Part shown: positions 1,974 to 2,214 of the stretch, in pieces
Position numbering within the stretch: the first letter of the stretch is position 1
Layout: the number at the start of each line of letters is the position of its first letter
From: a virus
Lineage: Duplodnaviria; Heunggongvirae; Uroviricota; Caudoviricetes
IMG/VR virus record: IMGVR_UViG_2671180846_000008
DNA length: 4,900 nucleotides
Reading direction: 5' to 3' (one strand)
Translations under genes and position numbers: made by a program
Notes under the pieces: model-generated
Told to the model about the DNA's origin: nothing
Databases searched by the model: none
What the model saw: the letters and a program-made list of their open reading frames with translations, nothing else

Positions 1974-2214
1974 GAACGAGTATCGGGATGGCACATAGCC
2001 TCGCTCAAATTGGAGTCAGGTTTGTGCCAATACCAGTAGAAACAGACGAAGAATTTCATACGTTNNNNNNNNNNNNNNNNNNNNNNNNNNNNNNNNNNNN
2101 NNNNNNNNNNNNNNAGAAACAGACGAAGAATTTCATACGTTAGCCACATCCCTTTCACAAAAGCTGGAAATGATGGCGGCGAAAGCAGAAGCAAACGAGA
2201 GAGACCCGGCATGA
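1946..2214 (+). CDS. orf63: orf63-like small protein, interrupted by a 50-nt N gap plus a 27-bp duplicated flank; 63 aa if the gap and one repeat copy are removed
   Basis: Pre-gap part encodes MHKASPVELRTSIGMAHSLAQIGVRFVPIPVETDEEFHT. Post-gap part encodes ETDEEFHTLATSLSQKLEMMAAKAEANERDPA, ending at TGA 2212-2214. Removing 77 nt (50 N + 27-bp repeat) restores one continuous 192-nt ORF. Overlaps orf60a by 28 nt. Confidence 0.7.
2065..2114. other. Run of 50 N (unsequenced or scaffold gap), flanked by an identical 27-bp sequence at 2038-2064 and 2115-2141
   Basis: Directly visible: 50 consecutive n characters. agaaacagacgaagaatttcatacgtt occurs immediately before and immediately after the run. 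Confidence 0.98.

Follow-up and report, generated by a model that had tools for sequence, protein, structure and literature searches.

The authors of the assembler ABySS describe that unresolved repeats are written as runs of N. In scaffold gaps of this origin, as in those of de Bruijn graph assemblies generally, the N run is arbitrary, the contigs on either side of it are linked by read pairs, and each contig end reaches k-1 bases into a short repeat that a paralogous locus also has. The window analysed here, by which we mean the whole stretch of 4,900 nucleotides, holds a gap that resembles these in each of the three respects. Its only unusual point lies in a repeat which, at 97 bp, falls short of 2(k-1), with contig ends that overlap. 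A further likeness is to the collapsed or chimeric lambdoid prophage consensus sequences of draft STEC genomes, with which the window shares block switching between the alleles of two prophages. Both of these prophages are found in the complete genome of E. coli O26:H11 11368, and they are referred to below as P1 (locus L001) and P2 (L013, at 0.61 Mb beside tRNA-Arg and fimZ).

The gap lies within a homologue of lambda orf63, a gene of 63 codons at 31005-31196 of the lambda map (NP_040614.1). When the duplicated part is collapsed, the homologue is like its lambda counterpart in having 63 codons, in following exo and orf60a (DUF1317) in the same order, in overlapping orf60a by 28 nt, in the window as in lambda, and in matching the DUF1382 family in full. 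It differs in its allele, which belongs to the O26:H11 prophage and not to lambda: the collapsed product is identical at 63 of 63 residues to the DUF1382 family protein of P1 (WP_000548547.1) and at 54 of 63 to that of lambda. Taken with the comparisons described below, the feature is, with a probability of about 0.95, a scaffold join made by a short-read de Bruijn assembly at a skipped repeat common to P1 and P2, and no property of the genome. There is no biological feature and no novelty at the gap.

Source record and gene content of the window

A script comparison established that the window is byte-identical, Ns included, to the entire WGS record LDYN01000280.1 (GCA_001309465.1), which is 4900 bp long. 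The project LDYN00000000 is the draft genome of E. coli O26:H11 strain 05-6544, a human stx1 eae isolate (PMC4563881), and the identity of the strain is also confirmed in PMC6266700. Its reads were generated on a HiSeq2000 as 100-bp paired ends with a 300-bp insert at ~427x and were assembled with ABySS 1.3.4 into 280 contigs, and the reference-guided scaffolding used in the same study was confined to O157:H7 strains (PMC4563881). LDYN01000280.1 is consequently the product of a short-read assembler that inserts N runs, as a scaffold join requires. Additionally, the gene calls stored with the record end at 2064 and resume at 2115, which indicates that the Ns were part of the record as deposited. 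The smallest gap written by abyss-scaffold is 50 N, and the default build of ABySS accepts k up to 64; both values would fit the present case, and neither is needed for the conclusion. The literature search for the ABySS --min-gap default found no statement of it.

The window corresponds to the early-left (recombination) region of a lambdoid prophage, in the orientation opposite to lambda's map. Its left part, called contig A here (1-2064, + strand), aligns without gaps to L001 1501-3564 and carries gam (30-326), bet (332-1117), exo (1114-1791), an orf60a-like gene of the DUF1317 family that ends at 1973, and the 5' part of orf63. Its right part, contig B (2115-4900, + strand), aligns without gaps to L001 3538-6323 at 99.8% and runs from the 3' part of orf63 through the start of int. 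A 71-aa gene comes after orf63, with TraR/DksA-like, Ea22-like, DUF551 and DUF4222 genes further downstream; a 114-aa gene is listed between DUF4222 and xis (4661-4879), and after xis only the start of int is present.

The 27-mer repeat and the N run

The only N run of the window, as verified by script, occupies 2065-2114 and is exactly 50 N long. Both of its edges are abutted by the 27-mer AGAAACAGACGAAGAATTTCATACGTT, at 2038-2064 and at 2115-2141, and direct reading as well as a script showed the two copies to be 100% identical, in agreement with the first-pass annotation, which had reported identical 27-bp copies directly on either side of the run. The interval between the copies holds N only, without readable sequence. 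According to the script, no third copy of the 27-mer exists in the window on either strand, and all other exact repeats of at least 12 nt sit within the pair, which is the longest direct repeat of the window and has a start-to-start spacing of 77. The pattern of 27-mer, gap and 27-mer was observed once, with 0.00 matches expected from 200 shuffles, and the analytic expectation for any exact repeat of 27 nt in 4.9 kb is ~7e-10. The probability that the pair arose by chance is negligible.

Copy 1 (+ strand) constitutes the last 27 bases of contig A and copy 2 (+ strand) the first 27 bases of contig B, so that the same genomic bases appear to be written in both. Since the N run is the lone one in the window, is present in the public record and has gene calls that halt at its edges, it was classified as a scaffold gap placeholder. 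On the evidence of the alignments, the 50 N would not represent 50 real bases, and the true distance between the contig ends would be -27. The two X-containing ORFs that had been noted at the gap do exist in the ORF list, at 1946-2143 (+) and 1970-2278 (-). A CRISPR-like array, which the first-pass annotation had already dismissed, fails as a candidate on three counts: two copies are present, as opposed to the three or more regularly spaced repeats of an array, which has unique spacers and usually cas genes or a leader close by; the spacer consists of 50 N; and the neighbours are lambda recombination genes.

Comparison of the collapsed sequence with finished genomes

Collapsing the window, that is, removing 2065-2141 (77 nt), leaves 4823 bp. 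This collapsed sequence aligned to P1 over 4823 of 4823 positions, gap-free and with 99.5% identity. All 23 mismatches fall outside 1609-4299, within which the identity is 100%; at least 430 bp to the left and 2.1 kb to the right of the junction are therefore identical to P1. When the two pieces were aligned separately, the left piece ended at L001 3564 and the right piece started at L001 3538, which amounts to an overlap of 27 bp. The overlap was exactly 27 bp in 11 of 11 comparable loci, lambda included (those named for it are L001-L005, L007-L010 and lambda, L012), and it was seen again in the complete genomes listed among the matches, such as CP028126 (3156354 versus 3156328). The collapsed sequence is also colinear with lambda, with no gap. 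The description of the feature as a probable assembly join of overlapping contig ends, put forward from the sequence letters, is thus upheld by the gap-free alignment to the 11368 prophage and by the 27-bp overlap in the reference sequences.

In larger collections, a collapsed query of 1124 bp matched in one piece, gap-free and at 99.7%, in the complete E. coli genomes listed, and 2989 of 5426 complete genomes hold a place that covers at least 80% of it. At least 120 IMG/VR contigs contain the collapsed 47-nt junction, all of them with the 27-mer in single copy, and the 27-mer was likewise single-copy in all 11 comparable loci. Searches for the duplicated form (27-mer, 30-60 nt, 27-mer) in IMG/VR, GTDB species genomes and JGI metagenomes returned none. 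As controls for these searches, the pattern was shown to match N in the window, and the search for the collapsed junction, with its at least 120 matches, provided a positive control. These results are in line with the earlier statement that the gap holds no real insertion, and they indicate that the true sequence is the window without 2065-2141. The 27-mer did not stand out as a recurrent breakpoint in IMG/VR either, as 6 of the 120 loci listed end within 200 nt of it, with no clear pattern.

The orf63 reading frame

In the collapsed sequence, the orf63 homologue (DUF1382, 63 aa, + strand) is formed by 1946-2064 joined to 2142-2214. It aligns to positions 1-60 of the 60 in the Pfam DUF1382 profile (PF07131) with 104.7 bits, against a cut-off of 27. 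The deposited record, by comparison, splits the gene into DUF1382 fragments of 39 aa and 32 aa, and the truncated 39-aa product covers only positions 1-39 of the profile. Dropping the Ns alone gives an ORF of 72 codons in which ETDEEFHTL is duplicated. The first-pass annotation had predicted that collapse and re-translation would restore an ORF of 63 codons with the length and position of lambda orf63, and that the apparent frameshift and truncation were artefacts; the 63-aa product, identical to the P1 homologue, bears out both. In the true sequence orf63 would be intact and ordinary, and the deposited split false.

As regards the public record, the relevance of the gap is one of data hygiene only: it gives rise to a pair of false DUF1382 fragments and to the two ORFs with X residues. 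The fragments, at 1946-2064 (39 aa) and 2115-2214 (32 aa), are already present in a public gene-call collection, where locus L006 is identical to the window.

A paralogous prophage and the position of the break

The second lambdoid prophage of 11368, P2, shares 97.6% identity with the window across 2712 nt. Its allele of the orf60a-orf63 region is carried by several related contigs, and dozens of other complete genomes with P1 also hold P2. Across the gap, P2 equals the window over exactly 2003-2176, which after collapse is 35 + 27 + 35 = 97 bp, and the nearest differences between P1 and P2 lie at 2002 and 2177, each 36 nt from the corresponding edge of the 27-mer. In the window, this shared block (2003-2176, + strand) is partly written twice, as 2003-2064 and 2115-2176, with 62 nt in each part and the 27-mer as their overlap.

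When a unitig shared by two loci is skipped in a de Bruijn graph, the contigs on either side overlap by 2(k-1)-L, where L is the length of the exact shared block. With L = 97 and an overlap of 27, we infer an assembly k of 63, a value that is not stated in PMC4563881; by the same formula, k=64 would give an overlap of 29 and not 27. A de Bruijn graph simulation on the two 11368 loci, in which k took the odd values between 41 and 97, gave a concordant result. At k=63, alone among these values, the P1-only unitig ended at 2064 and the next one started at position 2038 of the collapsed sequence, which is 2115 of the window. Demonstrated on this related complete genome, the contig ends lie k-1 bases inside the shared repeat. 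Furthermore, of 71 possible placements the 27-bp overlap takes the one in the centre of the 97-bp block; such centring is predicted neither by a random coverage gap nor by a real duplication.

The following sequence of events is therefore proposed as a model. Judging from its relatives, strain 05-6544 most likely has, as 11368 does, a pair of paralogous lambdoid prophages, which in the orf60a-orf63 region would differ by scattered SNPs and have one exact 97-bp block in common. The left P1-specific unitig would enter this block by k-1 = 62 nt and stop at 2064, and the right one would begin at position 2115 of the window, with 62 nt of the block still to come; the 97-bp two-copy unitig between the two P1-specific contigs would have been left out. 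ABySS would then have linked the contigs via read pairs and written 50 N as filler. As 62 + 62 - 97 = 27, the contig ends would share 27 genomic bases, which are printed twice. Two observations count against the model: ABySS crossed another shared block of 72 bp (2565-2636) but not the one of 97 bp, and its gap-filling step left open a gap for which the graph offers a single path.

Alternative explanations for the gap

Any assembler that leaves short overlaps unmerged could produce a 27-bp overlap with N filler, and an artefact with another cause was considered for this reason, be it a drop in coverage or erosion of contig ends with a short overlap left unmerged, or an assembly at k=28, for which k-1 = 27. 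We regard this as very unlikely. The depth of ~427x argues against a coverage drop, whereas k=28 needs a paralogue that differs right beside the 27-mer; the nearest differences lie 36 and 36 nt away in P2 and 23 and 5 nt away in lambda, and k=28 was ruled out because no paralogue among the loci examined differs in the adjoining positions. In addition, it is only the k=63 model that explains both the centred overlap (1 of 71) and why the record starts where it does, on the first shared base. Lower still in likelihood is a misjoin, in which contigs A and B come from different prophages and the collapse creates a sequence absent from the strain. Contig A is indeed a mosaic of P1 and P2 alleles over 251-1608, and part of it is thus not a single locus. 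Closer to the gap, however, P1 alleles occupy each of the last 15 diagnostic sites of contig A (1775-2002) as well as all 33 typable sites of contig B (2177-2784), and the stretch 1609-4299 is the one that is 100% identical to P1. Given the P1 alleles on both sides and this identity, the join connects P1 to P1, and a misjoin at the junction itself was ruled out by the alleles on its two flanks.

A real change in the prophage that frameshifts orf63, either a 77-bp tandem duplication or a short insertion with 27-bp direct repeats, ranks below the misjoin and, on grounds of parsimony and comparison, is highly improbable. It is true that a 77-bp tandem copy with its central 50 nt given as N would look identical to the window, but N runs in ABySS scaffolds are placeholders. 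The duplicated arrangement was absent from the three collections searched, the 27-mer is single-copy in at least 120 IMG/VR loci and in every comparable locus, the best-matching complete E. coli genomes are gap-free, and a real duplication would not predict contig ends that lie exactly k-1 from the paralogue SNPs. Hardly credible at all is the explanation that a database, or the preparer of the window, introduced the Ns into the deposited sequence and thereby masked 50 real bases. Although a few stretches of one collection have reportedly been masked as N, the public record is identical to the window with its Ns, its gene calls already break off at 2064 and resume at 2115, and under later masking the improbable real duplication would still be needed.

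Allele mosaicism and the ends of the record

The mosaic of contig A extends over gam, bet and exo. Each of the 82 sites that distinguish P1 from P2 carries, in the window, the allele of one of the two and never a third state, and the alleles of contig A change in blocks, with P1 at 251-473, P2 at 550-943, P1 at 1030-1248, P2 at 1335-1608 and P1 from there onwards. For the left half of the window, the best match among 5,426 complete E. coli genomes was 99.1%. The mosaic is probably a chimera of two prophage copies produced by bubble popping; real gene conversion or recombination between the prophages could give the same picture, and it is solely the mosaic's absence from the 5,426 complete genomes that speaks for the artefact. 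Given the apparent chimera of contig A, it would be unsafe to draw conclusions on the alleles of bet and exo from this record, and the same applies to comparable STEC draft assemblies.

Many different P1/P2 mosaics were seen over 251-2784 of the window in loci L002-L011, which derive from draft, metagenome and Logan contigs. Among them, L010 has a change of allele that coincides exactly with the 97-bp block, and L004 has one at the block of 72 bp (2565-2636). Evidently, short-read assemblies do not give a reliable phasing of this region.

Both ends of the record were also compared with the prophages. Position 1 of the window is the first base of a 250-bp block common to P1 and P2, and in the k=63 graph a shared unitig begins at this same base, where the record starts. 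With the last upstream difference between P1 and P2 at coordinate 0, the left end of the record, too, coincides with a repeat boundary of the de Bruijn graph. At the other end, five differences from P1 cluster at 4300-4382 and 4832, and over 4560-4900 no complete genome matched at 100%, the best match per genome being P1 at 99.7%. These differences may stem from a third paralogous prophage whose alleles entered contig B, and such a prophage may also be the reason why the record ends at 4900.

Recognition of skipped repeats and a neighbouring open reading frame

The geometry of the gap provides a check that can be reused on other records. An N run with identical short flanks, whose ends are equidistant (k-1) from the outer paralogue SNPs, marks a skipped short repeat. 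The same equidistance also reveals the k of the assembler; here the outer SNPs lie 36 nt beyond the repeat.

A strongly hydrophobic ORF of 27 codons, MTTTECIFLAAGFIFCVLMLADMGLVQ, was noted at 2211-2294 (+), between orf63 and the 71-aa gene, to both of which it is joined by ATGA stop/start overlaps. The RefSeq entry for P1, whose sequence is identical here, carries no annotation of this ORF, the interval from L001 3637 to 3714 being a gap between annotated features. The ORF could encode a small membrane peptide or could be a product of chance.
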